A DNA stretch of 63,850 bases, the filler included, from Candidatus Fermentibacterota bacterium (GTDB lineage Bacteria > JAFGKV01): the NCBI GenBank assembly GCA_016928395.1. It is 7 parts of 7 records of this genome, joined end to end, with 100 filler letters (N's around TTAATTAATTAA, not from the genome) between each part and the next. Parts side by side here need not be neighbours in the genome. Positions count along the whole stretch, not along the records: positions 55,981 to 63,850 come from JAFGKV010000110.1; 6 more parts are not named here. One strand, given 5' to 3'. Shown here one piece after another: positions 3,836 to 62,737 of this stretch. Numbering within the stretch: the stretch's first letter is position 1; each line of letters starts with the position of its first letter. Below the pieces are notes generated by a model, which made no database searches, was not told where the DNA came from, and saw only the letters and a program-made list of their open reading frames with translations. A program made the position numbers and the translations under genes.

Positions 3836-4735
3836 ATGAGATGGACTGTGTTCGTGGCCATTGCTTTGGCCTTGCCGTGCATGGCAGCCGAATGGTGGGA
3901 GGAGGAGCTGCAAGCTCAGGAGGCTGTGGAGGAGGGCACTCCCGTGCAGGCTTGTGCAGGCAAGGTATTGTGGACTCAGGGCTTTATCGAGGTCGTGGGA
4001 GAAGCGGCCTGCGACATGGATGAGGCGCTGAGCGAGGGCCACTGCTACGTGATGGCGCGGCGCGCGGCCATCGTACTGGCCCAGGAGAAGCTGTCGGAGA
4101 CGGTGAACGGCATCGTCGTTGACGGCGAGACCCTCCTGCGCAATGAGCTGCTGAGCTCCAGTACGCTTCGCACCACGATGCGAGGCCTGGTGAAGGGCGC
4201 TCAGGTGGTTCACGAGGACAGGGTGACCCTGCCCGACGGCTCCATTCTGGCGCGGGTGTGGATGCAGCTTCCCCTGCGGGGAGAGGGCGGTCTTGCGGCC
4301 CCCATCCTCGAACATGCCGCCCAACTGTCGGCCCAGCGGCCGGTCCCTGCATTCTCGTTCGACAAGGCGCCGCCTGCTGAGCCCTTCACGGGGATCATTG
4401 TAAACGCCTCAGGTCTTCAGGCGGTGCCCGCCATGGCGCCACGGCTGCTGGTGCTGAAGGAGTTGACCGCTGCCCTGAGTGTTGAACACGTGGAGCTTGC
4501 CACGGCGCAGGAGATAGGCCTCGTGGAGTATGCGGGCTCAGTGGACGATGCCAGGGCGCTTGGCGCCCGCATCGGTTCAAATCCCTTGGTGCTGAAAGCC
4601 GAATCGAGCCACGGCGCCACCAAGTCCGACCTGGTCATCTCCGCGCAGGAGGGCACGCGGTTGGCCGCGGGTGACCCCGAGGGGACTCTGGTCAGGGCCT
4701 GCAAGGTCGTCTTCGCGGGGCATCAGTTCATCTGA
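3836..4735 (+). CDS. Secreted LPP20-family-like protein
   Basis: GGAGG RBS at 3824-3828 and a signal peptide. Motifs ARRAAIVLAQEKLSETVNGIVVDGET, RGLVKGAQVV and FTGIIVNASGL..PAMAPR resemble LPP20-type proteins. Confidence 0.55.
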   Translation: MRWTVFVAIALALPCMAAEWWEEELQAQEAVEEGTPVQACAGKVLWTQGFIEVVGEAACDMDEALSEGHCYVMARRAAIVLAQEKLSETVNGIVVDGETLLRNELLSSSTLRTTMRGLVKGAQVVHEDRVTLPDGSILARVWMQLPLRGEGGLAAPILEHAAQLSAQRPVPAFSFDKAPPAEPFTGIIVNASGLQAVPAMAPRLLVLKELTAALSVEHVELATAQEIGLVEYAGSVDDARALGARIGSNPLVLKAESSHGATKSDLVISAQEGTRLAAGDPEGTLVRACKVVFAGHQFI

Positions 4736-56851: not shown

Positions 56852-57285
56852 TCTCACCGAGAGGCGCGCCGCGCTCGCTAATCCAGACCCCCCTCTGCCC
56901 AATCTCTCATCGATAGCCGTCGCTATCTCCTTGACCTTCCCCCGGTGTCTTCAGATGTTGCAGCCCATCGGAAGGTCGGCGTAGTGTACCGTTGAGCCGG
57001 GATAATGCCCCGGCGTGGCGGCACCCGGCCCTTCCGCACAAGGGGTGCGCATGAGCTGTGGCCTCCTGCTGCGATCTTTTCGATTCCCCCCCTCAGCCCT
57101 CGCTCCACCGCGGGCAGGGCTTCCTCAGTGTGGTCGTTTTCCCCCTGTTTCGTGTTCCCCCATCTCCCCTTCAGCCTGGCAGGTGCTGCCGGAAAGGAGC
57201 CCGCGTGATGAGTTCCATGCGTATGGGTCTGTACCATTCACCCTGTAGCCACGGCGCTGTGCGCCGTGCATGGAGGAGGCCTGGA

Positions 57286-59475
57286 ATGAAAGCCAGTGTG
57301 ACGGTGCTCGGGTTGATGCTGCTGTGCGTGGTGGCATCCGCGGAGATTCCACAGATGATCAGCTATCAGGGTAAGGTGACGGATGCGGCGGGGAATCCTG
57401 TCGCGGACGATACCTACACCATGCGGTTTCGGATCTACGATCAATTTGCCGGGGGTGCGCTGCAGTGGGACAGCGGTGACCAGAGTGTGGAGGTGGCGGG
57501 AGGCGTGTTCAGCGTCTTGTTGGGCGAGAGCCCGCAGCCTACGCTGGGGCTCGACTTCAGCACCGACTACTGGCTTCAGGTGACCTTTGCGGGAGTGGAT
57601 CAGACGCCCTGCCAGCGCCTGACATCCGCGGGATACGCGTACATGGCCAGCGGGCTGGTGGCGGGGACCGAGGTGATCGGGTCGGTGACGAGTGGGACAT
57701 CGGCGGCGGTCAAGGGGACGAACACGTCCACCGTCGGCTCCACCTACGGTGTCTACGGCGTCAGCTCCTCCACTGCCGGCTCCACCTGCGGTGTCTACGG
57801 CGTCAGCTCCTCCACTGCCGGCAGGGGGGTCTATGGCTGGGCTGCGGCCACCTCGGGCTACACCTCAGGCGTCTATGGCGTGAGCCACTCCGAGAACGGC
57901 CGCGGGGTGCAGGGCCTGGCCGTCCTCTCCTCGGGCACCAACTATGGGGGCTACTTCGAGAGCTACTCCCCCGAAGGCTGCGGGGTGTATGGCAGTGCCA
58001 CCGCCACATCGGGTAGCACCTACGGCGGCTACTTCCAGAGCGACTCCCCCGCAGGCCGCGCGGTGTACGGCGTTTGCACCGCCACATCGGGCGACGCCCG
58101 CGCAGGATACTTCAAGAGTTTCTCCCCCTCGGGCTGCGGAGTGTACGGCTGGGCCACGGCCACGGAGGGTACCACCTCCGGAGGCCGCTTCGAGACCTCC
58201 TCTCCCGACGGTCACGCGGTGTGGGGCTTGTCCTGGGCCACCTCAGGCGGGGCCTCGGGCATCTATGGCGAGAGCCACTCTCCTGTCGGCCGCGGGGTGT
58301 ACGGCCGGGCAACCTCAGTATCTGGCGGGGCCTCGGGCGTCTATGGTGAGAGCTCCTCCACCGACGGCCGAGGAGTTACCGGCTGGGCCTCCGCCACATC
58401 GGGTTCCACCTATGGAGGGCGGTTCTCTACTGCCTCGCCCGAGGGCCTCGGCGTGCTCGGCTGGGCCACCGCCTCATCGGGTTCCGGCTCCGGCGTTCTT
58501 GGCGCGAGCGCCTCCCCCTCAGGCCGCGGGGTGCACGGCTGGGCCACGGCCACGTTCGGCACCACGTACGGCGTCTATGGCGAGAACCTCTCCAGCGCCG
58601 GCCGCGGGGTATACGGCTGGGCCGCGGCAACGTCGGGCTCCACCTACGGCATCTTTGGCGAGAGCTCCTCCACCGCCGGCCGCGGCGTGTACGGCTATGC
58701 CACCGCCGCATCGGGCACCACGTACGGCGTCTATGGCCGCAACGCCTCCACCGGCGGCCGCGGGGTGTACGGCTGGGTCAGTGCCACGTCGGGTACCACC
58801 TACGGCGTCGTTGGCGAAAGCTCCTCCACCGACGGCCGCGGGGTGTACGGCTGGGCCAGCGCCAACTCGGGCACCACCAACGGCGTCTATGGCCGCAGCG
58901 CCTCGACCGCAGGCCGCGGCGTGCGTGGCTACGCCGTCGCCACATCCGGCGTGACTTTTGGTGTGCATGGCCAGAGCGAATCGCCGAGCGGCTATGGCGT
59001 CTACTACGCCGGTGGCCTTGCCGGCAGCGGCACCAAGAGCTGTGTGGTCAAGACATCGAAAGGCCCGACCCTCATGTACTGCCAGGAGAGCCCCGAGAAC
59101 TGGTTCGAGGACTTCGGCAAAGGCCGTCTCGTGCGTGGCAGATGCCGCATCGAGCTGGATCCGCTGTTCCTGGAGACCGTGACCGTCGATAAGGCTCACC
59201 CGATGCACGTCTTCGTGCAGTTGGGTGGCGACTGCCGGGGTGTGTTCGTGGAAGAGGGAGTCATCGGGTTCGAGGTGATCGAGCTCCAGGGCGGGACGTC
59301 CTCCGTTCCCTTCACGTACCGCGTGGTCGCCAAGCGCAAGGGCTTCGAGGCGAAGCGCCTGGACGTGTGCGAGGCGGCGCGAACGGACGGCTACCTGTAT
59401 CCCGAAGTCCGGGAGAAGGAGCGGGAGGAGATAGGAGTCAGGCGTGAGGCGTCAGGCGAGAGGCGCGAAAAGTAA
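57286..59475 (+). CDS. Secreted Gly/Ser/Thr-rich repeat surface (fibre/adhesin-like) protein
   Basis: GGAGGAGG RBS, signal peptide, EIPQMISYQGKVTD N-domain, many ~26-aa repeats (GRGVYGWASATSGTTYGVYGESSSTA), C-terminal YCQESPENWFEDFG...FTYRVVAKRKG domain. Confidence 0.85.
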   Translation: MKASVTVLGLMLLCVVASAEIPQMISYQGKVTDAAGNPVADDTYTMRFRIYDQFAGGALQWDSGDQSVEVAGGVFSVLLGESPQPTLGLDFSTDYWLQVTFAGVDQTPCQRLTSAGYAYMASGLVAGTEVIGSVTSGTSAAVKGTNTSTVGSTYGVYGVSSSTAGSTCGVYGVSSSTAGRGVYGWAAATSGYTSGVYGVSHSENGRGVQGLAVLSSGTNYGGYFESYSPEGCGVYGSATATSGSTYGGYFQSDSPAGRAVYGVCTATSGDARAGYFKSFSPSGCGVYGWATATEGTTSGGRFETSSPDGHAVWGLSWATSGGASGIYGESHSPVGRGVYGRATSVSGGASGVYGESSSTDGRGVTGWASATSGSTYGGRFSTASPEGLGVLGWATASSGSGSGVLGASASPSGRGVHGWATATFGTTYGVYGENLSSAGRGVYGWAAATSGSTYGIFGESSSTAGRGVYGYATAASGTTYGVYGRNASTGGRGVYGWVSATSGTTYGVVGESSSTDGRGVYGWASANSGTTNGVYGRSASTAGRGVRGYAVATSGVTFGVHGQSESPSGYGVYYAGGLAGSGTKSCVVKTSKGPTLMYCQESPENWFEDFGKGRLVRGRCRIELDPLFLETVTVDKAHPMHVFVQLGGDCRGVFVEEGVIGFEVIELQGGTSSVPFTYRVVAKRKGFEAKRLDVCEAARTDGYLYPEVREKEREEIGVRREASGERREK

Positions 59476-59676
59476 GGCGGCGTAGCCGCAGAACTGCGTG
59501 GCGACAGCGAGTTGGGACTGGGCTGACAGCCGAGATCAGAAAGCTGAGAGCTCGTCGCGGAGCGAGGCTCGTCTCGCGACCTTCCTTCTTCTCCGAGAAT
59601 GAGATCCGCTCACCTGGGGCGGGTGTCCCTGGCGTAGCCTGGAAGAATGGCACTATTCTGCTTCGTAAATACGAGT

Positions 59677-60957
59677 TCACGCGGCTCTTTCTTGGGGCTC
59701 GATCGAGACGTGATGGCCAAGCGATGCAAGACGCTTCAGATGGTAGGTGACGAGACTCTCGTTGTTGAGTCGGTCGAAGTAGTCCGCGCCTAGATCTTCG
59801 TAGAGTTGATGACGGGTGAGCATGTAGTAGATAGTCGCGAGTATGGAATGTGCGAGGGCCACCTGGGCGCGCTTCTTCCCCCTCCGCCGCGCAAGTCGAC
59901 GGTGTTGCTCGGACAGATACGTGTTCCGGGTGCGACTGGCCGCCCATGCCACCTGGGTCAATGTGCCACGAAGCCACCGATTGCCTTTTGTCGTCTTTCC
60001 TGTCCGCCGCTTGCCTGCGCTCTCGTTGTTCCCCGGACATACGCCCGCCCATGATGCAAGATGTCCGGCGGTCGGAAACTGGCTCATGTCCGTCCCTATC
60101 TCTGCAACGATTGCCTCCGCGCTGCGTACATCTATCCCCGGTACACTCACCAGCAGTTCTACTGCTTCCGTGAATCCCATGATGCCCTCCTCTCCCTCCC
60201 GCTCACCGCTCAGTTCGTCCGAGCGCAGCACCGTCTCGATCCGTGCCGTCAGTTCCACAAGCACCTCTCCCAAGTACTGCCAATGCCTATACAGCGTCCC
60301 CAGCATGAATCGATGATGGTCCGTTACCTTCCCCTCCAGCGCCATCCTCAGCTCCGGCAGTTTCCGCCGTAACCGTCGCCGCGCCTTCTCTGCCAGTACT
60401 CCCGCGTCGTCCTCACCTCCGATGATTGCCGTGATCATCGCCTGCCCCGATACCCCCATGATATCCGACGCCACCGCACTCAGCTTGATGTTCCCATCCT
60501 CCAGTACCTTCTGCATCCGGTTCACCACCCGCGCACGCTCTGCCGTCACCTGCGTCCGATGTCTCGTCAGATCCCGTAACTCCCGGTGCGGTCGCGGCGG
60601 TATGAAGCTCCCTCTCAGGAGCCCATGCTGTAACAGCTGCGCCAGCCACTGGCAGTCCCGTACATCCGTCTTCCGCCCCGGCACCTGCTTCACATGATGG
60701 GCGTTGCAGATCAACACCTCAAACCGCCCCTCAAGCAGGTTGTACAACGGCTTCCAATACACTCCCGTCGATTCCATCGCCACGTGTGTCACCCCCCACC
60801 CCTCCAACCACTCACCAAGCTCCACCAACTCTCTCGTCATGGTCCCAAACGTCCGAGTCTCCTGCTCCACCCCTCCTCCCTCCGCCACCCGTACGTTCAC
60901 CTTCACGTTCTGCTTGTGCACATCGATCCCTGCGCACCTCGCATACATGACGTCCAT
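59677..60957 (-). CDS. IS110 family transposase/recombinase (DEDD RuvC-like + Tnp20)
   Basis: GIDVHK, MESTG, KTDVRD, LVSVPGI..AEIG..F, CPGNNESAGK (catalytic Ser), VALAH; GAGGAGGT RBS. Confidence 0.96.
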   Translation of the reverse strand: MDVMYARCAGIDVHKQNVKVNVRVAEGGGVEQETRTFGTMTRELVELGEWLEGWGVTHVAMESTGVYWKPLYNLLEGRFEVLICNAHHVKQVPGRKTDVRDCQWLAQLLQHGLLRGSFIPPRPHRELRDLTRHRTQVTAERARVVNRMQKVLEDGNIKLSAVASDIMGVSGQAMITAIIGGEDDAGVLAEKARRRLRRKLPELRMALEGKVTDHHRFMLGTLYRHWQYLGEVLVELTARIETVLRSDELSGEREGEEGIMGFTEAVELLVSVPGIDVRSAEAIVAEIGTDMSQFPTAGHLASWAGVCPGNNESAGKRRTGKTTKGNRWLRGTLTQVAWAASRTRNTYLSEQHRRLARRRGKKRAQVALAHSILATIYYMLTRHQLYEDLGADYFDRLNNESLVTYHLKRLASLGHHVSIEPQERAA

Positions 60958-60979
60958 CTCTCACCTCCTCTGTGCTCTT

Positions 60980-61131
60980 CGCCAAGGAGGACATCGCGTG
61001 CTCTTCCATTCTGCTTCGCGCGCTCGCCGGATCCCCGGCGGCAACACTCTTGGGTGCGGTTCGATGTCCACGCCAGACTAACATCCGGGCTCAACGCTCC
61101 AAGAATAGACGGCGTCTTCCCTTGGCGTCCT
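60980..61131 (-). ncRNA. Predicted IS110 bridge RNA
   Basis: Outer stem 61120-61127/60980-60987; loop 1 closed by 61111-61115/61070-61074; loop 2 closed by 61062-61069/60989-60996. Guide matches at 61102-61108, 61076-61084 and 61008-61018. Confidence 0.8.
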
Positions 61132-61137
61132 CGCCAC

Positions 61138-61166
61138 AGTCTAGCGGACCCCACGACCATTTTCAT
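61138..61166 (-). promoter_or_regulatory. Candidate promoter for the bridge RNA/transposase
   Basis: ATGAAA-N17-TAGACT on the minus strand, placing the start near 61131 just before the outer stem. Confidence 0.55.
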
Positions 61167-61408
61167 CCTCTTCGGGCGTCGCCCCTCGGCGTCATGACGA
61201 CTAACATGAGAATAGTGTCTCTCTTGTGCTCCCGCGGGCCTCCCCTGCGGGAGTATGCCGCTTTCCCCTCCTGAGCGGCATACGACGTCGCTGGGCCGTC
61301 CCGACAAGAGACTCAGTCATCCCCTCGATGATTCAGGGAGTCGCGGCCTTGACAGTACCCATTACTCTGCCCAATATGTGGTCGCTTCAATCCTCAAAGG
61401 AGACTACA

Positions 61409-61738
61409 ATGCCCGACCAAGTTGCTCCGCTGTCGGATCGAGACCGCCACGCCAAGGGTCCGAAGGGCAGCCGGACCATCGGCATCAGGGAACTCAAAGC
61501 GCATGCCTCTGCGGTCATCCAGGAAGTGAAGCGTCGCCGGGTCAGCTATGCAGTCACGAAGCGTGGCCGGGTTGAGGCCGTGATCGTTCCGGTGGATGTC
61601 GGGGAACGGCTGCTTTCACCCTCCCCGGCGGAGACCGCGTGGGAAGAGTGGCAGTGCTTGGCGACTGAACTGGCCAGGAGTTTTCAGGGCCGCACGACGC
61701 ACTCCGCCGTTGAAGAGCTGAGCCGGATGAGGCGCTGA
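61409..61738 (+). CDS. Phd/YefM family antitoxin
   Basis: AAGGAG RBS; TIGIRELKAHASAVIQEV..VTKRGRVEAVIVP. Confidence 0.88.
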   Translation: MPDQVAPLSDRDRHAKGPKGSRTIGIRELKAHASAVIQEVKRRRVSYAVTKRGRVEAVIVPVDVGERLLSPSPAETAWEEWQCLATELARSFQGRTTHSAVEELSRMRR

Positions 61739-61739
61739 G

Positions 61740-62171
61740 ATGCGTCTGATCACGGTCGATTCGAGCGTCTTCGTGAGCGCAGCCCGGCCATCGGAGCCGG
61801 GTTTCGAGGAGAGTACGGCGTTTCTCGCGTGGATTCGCCGTACCCAGCCGCGACTCTTTCTTCCGACGTTGGCCATCGTCGAGATGGCTACCGCTCTCAG
61901 TCGAACCGGGAACGACGAGGATATGGCGCAACGCTATGCCATGGCAGTCGGCCGATTGCCGAACACGGTGTTGGTCGCACTGGATGAGGGGCTGGCACGG
62001 CAGGCTTCGGAGCTCGGATCGCGCCACAAGCTGCGGGGAGCGGATGCAGTGTACGTGGCGACCGCGTCGCTTTTTGCCGCGCAGTTGGTGACGCTGGATC
62101 GAGAGCAGTTGGAACGCGGGGCTGCCATTGTTCAGACACTGACGCCATCTGGTTTCGTCGCCGCGACGTGA
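61740..62171 (+). CDS. PIN-domain (VapC-like) toxin
   Basis: VDSSVFV, E in LAIVEM, LRGADAVYVA, LVTLD; directly after the antitoxin. Confidence 0.9.
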   Translation: MRLITVDSSVFVSAARPSEPGFEESTAFLAWIRRTQPRLFLPTLAIVEMATALSRTGNDEDMAQRYAMAVGRLPNTVLVALDEGLARQASELGSRHKLRGADAVYVATASLFAAQLVTLDREQLERGAAIVQTLTPSGFVAAT

Positions 62172-62506
62172 TCCCCCCGCCGAGTTCGCCAATGGCCACC
62201 GTCTGGAGGTGGTCGCAGTAGATGGTGTACTCCCGGGACACACGATCCTCGCTGAACAGGTGAACCTTGGAGGGGACATCTCGCACGGTCGTGGTGATGG
62301 GTGTGCCAATTTGACTTCGCCGAGGTACTCATGAGCGGGCGTGGCGGATGTCGGTGCGGGGAGTGCATCATACATGGGTCAAGATTCGAGGATCGATCGG
62401 GCGATCTTGCTGAGCCATATCTGCGCATGTTCTGCACCAACGTCCCCCAGGTGGTCCTCCAATGTCCCCCAAATGGTCCTCGTGCAAGGGCCTTGCAGCG
62501 ATTCCC

Positions 62507-62737
62507 GGAACGACAGGATTCGATGTCGGGGAACTCCTCGATGGGACAAGCAACGCGGCCTTCGCGTACCGCGTGGTCGCCAAGCGCAAGGGGTTCGAGG
62601 ATCGCAGCCTCGACTGCTGCGCAGCCGCGGAACAGGATTCCTGCCTGTTCCCGGAGCTTCGGGAGAAGGAGCTGCGGGAGCATGAGGAGAAGCAGGAGCG
62701 GATGGTGCATGCGACGCCGGTGGGGAGCGAGGAGTGA
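62507..62737 (+). pseudogene. Orphan C-terminal fragment paralogous to the end of the 57286-59475 protein
   Basis: GFDVGELLDGTSNAAFAYRVVAKRKGFED..LFPELREKE versus GFEVIELQGGTSSVPFTYRVVAKRKGFEA..LYPEVREKE; 28-nt identity 62565-62592 = 59315-59342. Confidence 0.85.

Follow-up and report, generated by a model that had tools for sequence, protein, structure and literature searches.

A reverse-polarity IS110-family bridge-RNA element with a candidate distal left-donor site and a putative internal promoter

The element and its insertion site

We analysed a 63,850-nucleotide (nt) stretch of DNA from a Candidatus Fermentibacterota bacterium (assembly GCA_016928395.1), which we call the window and which includes 528 N. 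Positions 59658-61202 are a single intact insertion sequence of the IS110 family, on the minus strand, and the guides of its bridge RNA have a polarity opposite to that of IS621. We found no further copies of the element within the window.

The recombinase gene (59677-60957, minus strand) encodes 426 amino acids. The open reading frame matches PF01548 (8.3e-28) and PF02371 (4.7e-22), and with NCBIfam NF033542 ("IS110 family RNA-guided transposase") it reaches 285 bits, above the cut-off of 140. The protein has the N-terminal DEDD/RuvC-like domain and the C-terminal Tnp domain (PF02371) of the family. Other features of the element are also typical of the family: there are no long terminal inverted repeats, the two edges share a core dinucleotide, insertion is site-specific, and there is a non-coding RNA with two internal loops whose strands match the target and the donor. 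In the text of Siddiquee et al. that we drew on, recombinases have 315-330 amino acids in IS492, IS621 and Piv, 345-385 in the ISEc21 cluster, and 395-455 in the IS110 subgroup. At 426 amino acids, this protein falls in the subgroup that contains IS110 itself. The non-coding parts of the element are 17 nt past the stop codon and 243 nt ahead of the start codon.

The plus strand has a CT at each edge (59658-59659 and 61201-61202), which reads as AG on the coding strand. The element is inserted inside the loop of a palindrome that resembles a repetitive extragenic palindromic (REP) sequence. The left arm of this target, CACTATTCT, is at 59651-59659 (plus strand), and its last two bases are the copy of the core that adjoins the right end of the element. 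On the other side (61201-61217, plus strand), the core CT is followed by the remainder of the loop (AACATG) and by the right arm, AGAATAGTG, at 61209-61217, so that CACTATTCT flanks the element on both strands. The window has no uninterrupted copy of this palindrome. In a related 3.9-Mb metagenome-assembled genome (MAG) from Candidatus Eisenbacteria, which is GC-rich, AT-rich target palindromes are dispersed across the genome: ACTATTCT-N6-AGAATAGT occurs 72 times (for example at L173-L178), as compared to 0 times for a reversed control.

This Eisenbacteria genome also contains a 96%-identical copy of the element (L001), whose alignment to the window begins exactly at 61202. Uninterrupted palindromes with the loop type of L001 occur in the same genome, and these are empty sites. 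A second full copy, at a contig edge (L166), has the same termini as L001, as do miniature derivatives that we describe below, and all of these lie within one palindrome family. A contig from an unrelated sediment run (X2) departs from the window just before 59651, and its other end reads ...CATGACGA-CT-CATATT. The initial annotation of this locus had predicted that the circle junction would read ...CATGACGA-CT-GCTTCG..., which agrees with all of the ends that we saw (L001, the X2 contig, and the miniatures). The L001 copy itself is probably defective because at L001:4131-4132 it lacks 77 nt in the 3' part of the recombinase gene (59750-59826 in the window), and 77 is not a multiple of three.

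The bridge RNA

The 260 nt ahead of the start codon could be aligned between the window and 33 relatives (43-90% protein identity). We built an RNA profile from 33 of these 34 sequences and searched 159 loci and the window with it. There were 71 matches; 70 were on the coding strand ahead of the gene, and the other was a partial match on the other strand at a contig edge. RNAalifold, with 22 sequences, recovered the basal and distal stems of the target-binding loop, and four of the base pairs had compensatory changes on both sides. The consensus includes G-U pairs in 20-21 of the 22 sequences, so the RNA is on the same strand as the recombinase. The basal stem of the donor-binding loop also had more consecutive pairs for cognate strands than in the comparison (7.85 versus 5.57, n = 54). 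A search of 59300-61700 against Rfam gave no family at E ≤ 1, and folding the 245-nt left end as a single sequence was uninformative (z = -0.30).

Both loops are on the minus strand. The target-binding loop (61071-61114) has a basal stem (61110-61114 with 61071-61075) and a distal stem (UGGAGC...GCCCG). Its 5' guide is CUAUUCU (61102-61108), and its 3' guide is AUGUUAG, which together with the following UC gives AUGUUAGUC (61076-61084). The donor-binding loop (60989-61069) has a basal stem (61062-61069 with 60989-60996) and a distal hairpin between the guides. The 5' donor guide is CACCCAAGAG (61047-61056), and the 3' donor guide is CGAAGCAG (61011-61018), followed by AAU (61008-61010).

Guide polarity is inverted relative to IS621

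In IS621, as described in the text of PMC11208160, PMC13626964 and PMC11208158, CT flanks the element and lies on the coding strand, the left end of the element has the order left target, core, right donor, the other end has left donor, core, right target, and the 5' sides of the loops pair with the bottom strand. In the window, CUAUUCU is identical to plus-strand positions 59653-59659. Two further guides are reverse complements of plus-strand sequence, AUGUUAGUC of 61199-61207 and CGAAGCAG(AAU) (61008-61018) of 59655-59665. The initial annotation had listed guide matches at 59653-59659, 61199-61207, and 59658-59665, and we recovered all three. Relative to the genes, the 5' target guide complements the right flank as read on the coding strand, and both 3' guides are identical to the coding strand, the target guide at the left junction and the donor guide at the right end. 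An IS621-type element would have CT on the coding strand and 5' loop sides that match the coding strand left of the core. Here, the coding-strand core is AG (or AA in relatives), and it is the 3' sides that match. Three of the four loop guides obey the pairing rules of IS621, yet on the non-coding strand. The guide logic is that of IS621 rotated by 180 degrees, with the non-coding strand as the top strand that carries the CT core. Therefore the role of right donor falls to the end past the stop codon, and that of left donor to the end near the RNA.

The L001 copy provides a natural compensatory pair: its left flank differs from that of the window, and its 3' target guide has changed in step (AUAUGAG in place of AUGUUAG).

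To see if relatives share this polarity, we used 64 profile matches, which represent 54 non-redundant relatives (43-96% protein identity), and took from them both loops, each with its 5' and its 3' strand. For each guide, each region (upstream of the RNA or past the stop codon), and each orientation, we compared the longest exact match at the guide's own locus to the longest matches at other loci. Four of the 16 combinations stand out. The 3' target guide matches the same strand of the upstream region (8.30 versus 4.59 nt on average, with matches of at least 7 nt in 84% versus 3.5% of cases, n = 50), and the 3' donor guide matches the same strand of the region past the stop codon (7.24 versus 5.03; at least 7 nt in 76% versus 7.8%, n = 41). 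The 5' target guide has its matches in the region past the stop codon, in reverse complement (5.39 versus 4.86; 20% versus 4.2%). The fourth is the 5' donor guide, on the same strand of the upstream region (6.12 versus 4.96; 40% versus 7.6%), which we discuss in the next section.

If we anchor the 5' target guide at the element boundary and compare it to the reverse complement of the core and right flank, then 5.76 of 10 positions match, as compared to 4.19 for non-cognate loci. At least 7 of the 10 match in 13 of 38 loci, versus 2.5% across loci, and none of 5,000 shuffles reached the cognate mean. The canonical reading, with the 5' guide matching the left flank and core, gave no signal across the relatives (3.82 versus 4.00). 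The inverted polarity that had been proposed for this locus, with CT on the plus strand and the gene and RNA on the minus strand, holds up. The 3' donor guide, which corresponds to 59658-59665 at the right end, also shows a diagonal of covariation, between RNA columns 150-156 and DNA positions -7 to -1, and the second base of the core co-varies in both loops. The coding-strand core at left ends was AG in 30 of 45 cases, AA in 14, and CA in one, and in 29 of 33 loci the two ends had an identical core, but these tallies are not independent evidence, as the positions were placed from the guide matches.

The comparison of orientation across transposase homologs, which had been suggested as a check, found the same layout in the 54 non-redundant relatives and in ISArsp3, an element from plasmids of Arthrobacter and Glutamicibacter (the name is from ISfinder, via NCBI's annotation), which obeys the same guide relations. 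A Firmicutes subfamily with just 32-36% identity and with well-defined multi-copy ends, the most distant relatives that we examined, also appears to have this layout, on inspection by eye only. Judging from these comparisons of sequences, the inverted layout is a property of a large clade and not of a single copy. The initial annotation had proposed a distinct architecture for this one element, and that part of it we do not uphold, as the layout is common to the clade and the order of the guides has been published for IS1111-type elements (see below).

Several points weigh against this interpretation of the polarity. The signal for the 5' target guide is modest, and 25 of the 38 loci stay below 7 matches out of 10. 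In the window, the palindromic target makes the 5' target guide ambiguous, as it matches both arms. For most of the relatives, the boundaries were set by the guide matches; the cross-locus controls address this bias, and the core tallies do not. Finally, the contrast with IS621 and ISEc21 rests on the wording of the papers. (Among the tblastn matches listed for plasmids, there was no element named IS621, ISEc21, or IS1111.)

Asymmetric ends and recognition of the left donor

The two ends of the element are built differently. The right end is the 17 nt past the stop codon (59660-59676, minus strand), with 5 nt beside the core (59660-59664) and then the repeat ATTTAC (59665-59670). Across the clade the consensus of this repeat is ATTTTC, five bases from the core, and its TTTC is 93-98% conserved. 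At the left end, all on the minus strand, the core is followed by an 8-nt tip, a hairpin, a segment of 10-12 nt, and the other repeat. The tip, TCGTCATG (61193-61200), has a semi-conserved CATG, and its form in the clade is T-C/T-N3-CATG. The short hairpin, CGCC-GAGG-GGCG (61180-61191), varies in sequence across the clade, but the structure is kept, with compensatory changes (mean z = -1.67, and z below -1 in 22 of 39 sequences). The subterminal segment is ACGCCCGAAGAG (61168-61179), and the left repeat is GATGAAAAT (61159-61167), which contains ATGAAA, is 93-100% conserved, and begins 28-35 nt from the core. GATGAAAAT and the ATTTTC of the right end are inverted repeats, and they co-vary (GAAAC with GTTTC), with 93% complementarity versus 49% expected. 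The repeat (GAAAAT/ATTTTC) is 6 bp, or 8-9 bp in some members, and in the window copy 5 of 6 positions match.

The initial annotation had suspected that the left donor is recognized differently than in IS621, and the covariation bears this out. In a search for a canonical left donor guide, no RNA columns co-varied with positions +2 to +8 of the left tip. The first two bases of the tip do co-vary with the extension of the 3' target guide, which is reminiscent of the IS621 handshake guide. The canonical rule is that both donor guides pair beside the core and on opposite strands; here, the segment that resembles the 5' donor guide, and co-varies with it, ends 28-35 nt from the core. Compared in the same sense, this segment and the 5' donor guide share 8.19 of 14 positions, versus 6.62 for non-cognate pairs (n = 37), and none of 2,000 shuffles reached this value. 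In several sublineages, the guide and the segment have lineage-specific bases in common. When we looked in the RNA and in the body of the element for a sequence complementary to the 5' donor guide, matches were at background (5.11 versus 4.92 and 6.00 versus 5.84).

We suggest that the 5' donor guide may recognize the subterminal segment instead of the tip, by pairing with the non-coding strand, and we consider the odds for this to be about even. On the negative side, cognate guide-segment pairs have on average only about 1.6 more identities than non-cognate ones, and a conserved CACC motif that both contain makes up some of the similarity. Also, wobble pairing to the non-coding strand was not favored (24 compatible versus 40 reverse transitions), and conserved differences at the edges dominate.

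Miniature derivatives provide another view of the ends. The genome with L001 contains three of them: L167:330-455 (minus strand), L169:1-130 (minus strand), and L168:1500-1603 (plus strand; cut by the end of the contig). In each, about 57 nt of unrelated filler join the outermost 45 nt of the left (RNA-proximal) end to the final 12 nt of the right end. All are bounded by AG on the coding strand, sit in the same palindrome family, and lack both the RNA and the gene. In L169, the right flank immediately past the AG is of another sequence. We also saw contigs of the miniature type, with joints from 59671 to 61156 or 61158, in runs X1 and X2, of which X1 possibly represents the source sample. In run X1 the contig depth of the miniature was 17.7, as compared to 12.3 for the full copy. 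Because the miniatures retain precisely the tip, the hairpin, the segment, and the repeat but neither loop, the leader at the left end acts as DNA in cis.

A candidate internal promoter

In IS621, the promoter has its -35 box in the right end and its -10 box in the left end, and there is a 5' stem-loop on the RNA and low-level read-through transcription, according to the text of the same three papers (PMC11208160, PMC13626964, PMC11208158). For the element in the window, ATGAAA-N17-TAGACT (61166-61138, minus strand) had been put forward as a promoter that lies wholly inside the element. The motif is present, with 8 of 12 matches to the sigma-70 consensus, and the -10-like half of it (TAGACT, 61138-61143, minus strand) finds support across the clade. 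The spacer between the left repeat and the target-binding loop ranges from 23 to 57 nt, and 32 of 38 spacers contain TANNNT, versus 9.3 ± 2.4 for shuffled spacers (none of 1,000 shuffles reached 32). These boxes are mostly 15-24 nt before the target-binding loop.

The -35 half does not fare as well. ATGAAA is near-invariant, it co-varies with the repeat at the right end, and across the clade it is anywhere from 2 to 34 nt from the -10-like box, so it is primarily the subterminal inverted repeat, with a second role as a -35 box at best in some of the members. The box is 15-19 nt past ATGAAA in 12 of 38 loci, including the window, as compared to 1.6 expected.

We lean slightly towards transcription starting near 61131 from an internal promoter, as the enrichment and placement of TANNNT would suggest. 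By eye, we saw no -35/-10 pair across the circle junction, although we made no formal test. Two observations count against an internal start. Our scan for sigma-70 sites, which requires 9 of 12 matches, found 0 sites in 59400-61500. And a contig from RNA-library run X20 (151 nt, 61134-61284) crosses from the flank into the left end, which would fit read-through. In another RNA-library run (X14), two contigs lie inside the gene; contigs do not give the strand, the start, or the level of transcription.

Proposed mechanism and alternatives

Overall, we think that a reverse-polarity IS110 bridge-RNA element with unusual recognition of its left end and an internal promoter is the probable explanation for this locus. 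Insertion is RNA-guided and orientation-specific, into a palindromic repeat. The target-binding loop pairs as in IS621, and so does the 3' donor guide, though with respect to the genes both use the other strand. The 5' donor guide would pair with the subterminal segment of the left end, on the DNA strand that the 3' donor guide also pairs with. Transcription of the RNA and of the recombinase would come from a promoter wholly inside the left end, so that they could be expressed while the element is integrated, unlike with the junction promoter of IS621. In its strongest form, both donor guides would pair with the CT strand (the transferred, non-coding strand), the 3' guide at the core and the 5' guide about 25-35 nt off, across a conserved DNA hairpin. 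Together with the internal promoter, this would be a mechanism distinct from the synaptic complex of IS621, and we consider this full combination to be doubtful. If it is true, then reading the donor from one strand would suit a circular intermediate that is single-stranded or that extrudes a hairpin.

The ends of the element could instead have been mis-set. The polarity would then be of the ordinary IS621 type, with CUAUUCU as a canonical left-target guide on an arm of the palindrome and the crossover elsewhere. CACTATTCT is on both strands around the element, so in the window copy the 5' guide does match both arms. We view this as very improbable, however, because the match of L001 to the element begins at precisely 61202 and a changed flank in that copy comes with a changed 3' guide, the miniatures and the X2 contig have the same termini, and in relatives with non-palindromic targets the canonical reading gives nothing (3.82 versus 4.00) while the inverted reading gives a signal.

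The other two alternatives concern the leader at the left end, and both seem unlikely to us, the first marginally more so. In one, the leader (the tip, the hairpin, the segment with CACC, and GATGAAAAT) forms the 5' portion of the RNA, with transcription coming from outside the element or from the junction, and TAGACT and ATGAAA are RNA motifs or protein-binding motifs. Compensatory changes maintain the hairpin, as is expected for a stem in RNA; a 5' stem-loop and low-level read-through are both described for IS621, as noted above from the published text; the X20 contig from an RNA library covers 61134-61284; and no sigma-70-like site passes our scan. But the miniatures retain the leader without the loops, the repeat in the leader co-varies with the repeat at the right end, which makes it an inverted repeat at the DNA level, TANNNT is enriched and is positioned with respect to the loop that binds the target, and the junction has no promoter pair that we could see (again by eye, with no formal test made). 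In the other, the likeness between the 5' donor strand and the segment has nothing to do with donor recognition: the segment is an operator for self-regulation, or both are a protein-binding motif that conversion has kept alike. This would account for the segment being directly upstream of ATGAAA, where it abuts the repeat and the putative -35 box, for the fact that much of the identity is the conserved CACC motif, and for the strand, which is "wrong" for a left donor guide of the IS621 type. It is harder to reconcile with the variable, lineage-specific bases that both have in common in several independent sublineages, with the location of the segment, which is flanked by the tip and the repeat, a placement that at the right end belongs to the guide-matched bases, and with its presence in miniatures that have no promoter to regulate. 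Also, we found no other guide for the left end.

Comparison to known systems

The element is similar to IS621 and IS622 (Durrant 2024, Hiraizumi 2024) in several respects. Its recombinase has DEDD and Tnp domains, and the left end encodes the RNA, which precedes the gene and shares its strand. The RNA forms two internal loops, and in each of them the core dinucleotide is part of both the 5' and the 3' guide. Past the 3' target guide, 2-3 more nt match the donor side, as in a handshake. The element also has a REP-type target, a CT core, and no long terminal repeats. It differs in that the CT strand is the non-coding strand, so that the sides of the loops swap which flank or end they read, and in that the RNA-proximal end has no core-adjacent guide. 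Furthermore, its subterminal repeats are 6-9 bp instead of 2-3 bp, its left end has a hairpin and a distal guide-like segment, its promoter-like box is about 60 nt inside the element instead of across the junction, and its recombinase has 426 instead of 315-330 amino acids.

In the text of Siddiquee 2024, the seekRNAs of IS1111-type elements have the complement of the top strand 5' of the match to the bottom strand, and this order is reversed in ISEc21, which is IS110-type. The reversed guide order that we describe is thus already published for IS1111-type elements. Like those elements (ISEc11, ISPa11, and ISKpn4; Siddiquee 2024), the element in the window has this order of target matches as well as subterminal inverted repeats. 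Unlike them, it has its RNA upstream of the gene instead of downstream, a recombinase of 426 instead of 330-350 amino acids, a right end of only 17 nt where IS1111 elements have a long non-coding stretch, and repeats that are very unequally spaced from the two ends. The repeats of IS1111 are 7-17 bp, versus 6 bp here (8-9 bp in some members), and the likeness is one of layout. In other words, the element combines the upstream RNA of IS110-like elements with the guide order of the IS1111 type.

ISArsp3 (46.6% protein identity) has the same RNA blocks, its left junction is identical to its 3' target guide, and its right end, AATTTTC-ATGTC-AG, corresponds to its 3' donor guide. It has another target, and by eye there is no TANNNT box before the loop. 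The three plasmid copies of ISArsp3 are in one context, so we count them as one insertion.

For reversed polarity, we consulted the text of PMC11208160, PMC11208158, PMC13626964, and PMC11187229, and of the bioRxiv preprints 2024.06.21.599552, 2025.10.25.684509, 2025.05.14.653916, 2026.08.14.744561, and 2026.10.21.760802, each in part. In this literature text, with figures and supplements outside the search, we found no description of the combination of an upstream RNA, reversed guide order, asymmetric repeats, a hairpin, a distal segment, and an internal box. Extended Data Fig. 10c of Durrant (ISAar29 and ISHne5) and Fig. S12 of 10.64898/2026.10.21.760802 may already show the reversal of sign. 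The text of the latter reports signed covariation for 86 models of bridge RNAs, within donor windows of 25 nt.

Neighboring genes and other relatives

Beyond the target site, the window has genes on the plus strand on both sides. At 61409-62171, immediately next to the element, there is a pair that encodes a Phd/YefM antitoxin (PF02604, 4.8e-08) and a PIN-domain toxin (PF01850, 6.4e-13). At 57058-59475, there is an open reading frame of 805 amino acids with many G-x-Y-G and T-S-G repeats and no match in Pfam. A paralogous copy of its C-terminal motif recurs at about 62462-62737.

The Firmicutes subfamily mentioned above (L070-L075, L050-L056, and L021-L025, with left ends near 2700 and right flanks near 4345-4375) is inserted beside CTCC, which is the complement of a ribosome-binding site, and the left flanks vary. 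On the opposite strand, the left tip of these elements is like a ribosome-binding site with its spacer (GGAGG-N7, with ATG next in one set), pointing outward. In this subfamily, the 3' target guide is identical to the first 9-10 nt of the element and not to the flank.

In three other relatives (the right end of L109, L099:1566-1726, and L156:2573-2733), there is a tandemly duplicated right-end tail (GGTTTCATAAT-AG-GTTTCATAATAG) or a second copy of the bridge RNA directly downstream of the gene. These duplications suggest head-to-tail or nested insertions.

Implications

Bridge recombinases are being developed as programmable tools for rearranging genomes, and nearly all of the mechanistic knowledge about them comes from IS621 and IS622. 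Our results suggest that in a large and widespread branch of the family, which includes the subgroup of the founding IS110, the donor site is opposite to the genes and is accompanied by IS1111-like repeats. This branch probably has its own internal promoter, and the data suggest that one of its ends is recognized via a distal site beyond a DNA hairpin. If so, then these orthologs would follow other design rules for guides and for minimal donors (about 45 nt plus 12 nt), and the licensing of excision, which is tied to the junction promoter in IS621, would be answered differently here. The layout lies between the IS110-type and the IS1111-type architectures, and it bears on how these two groups diverged.

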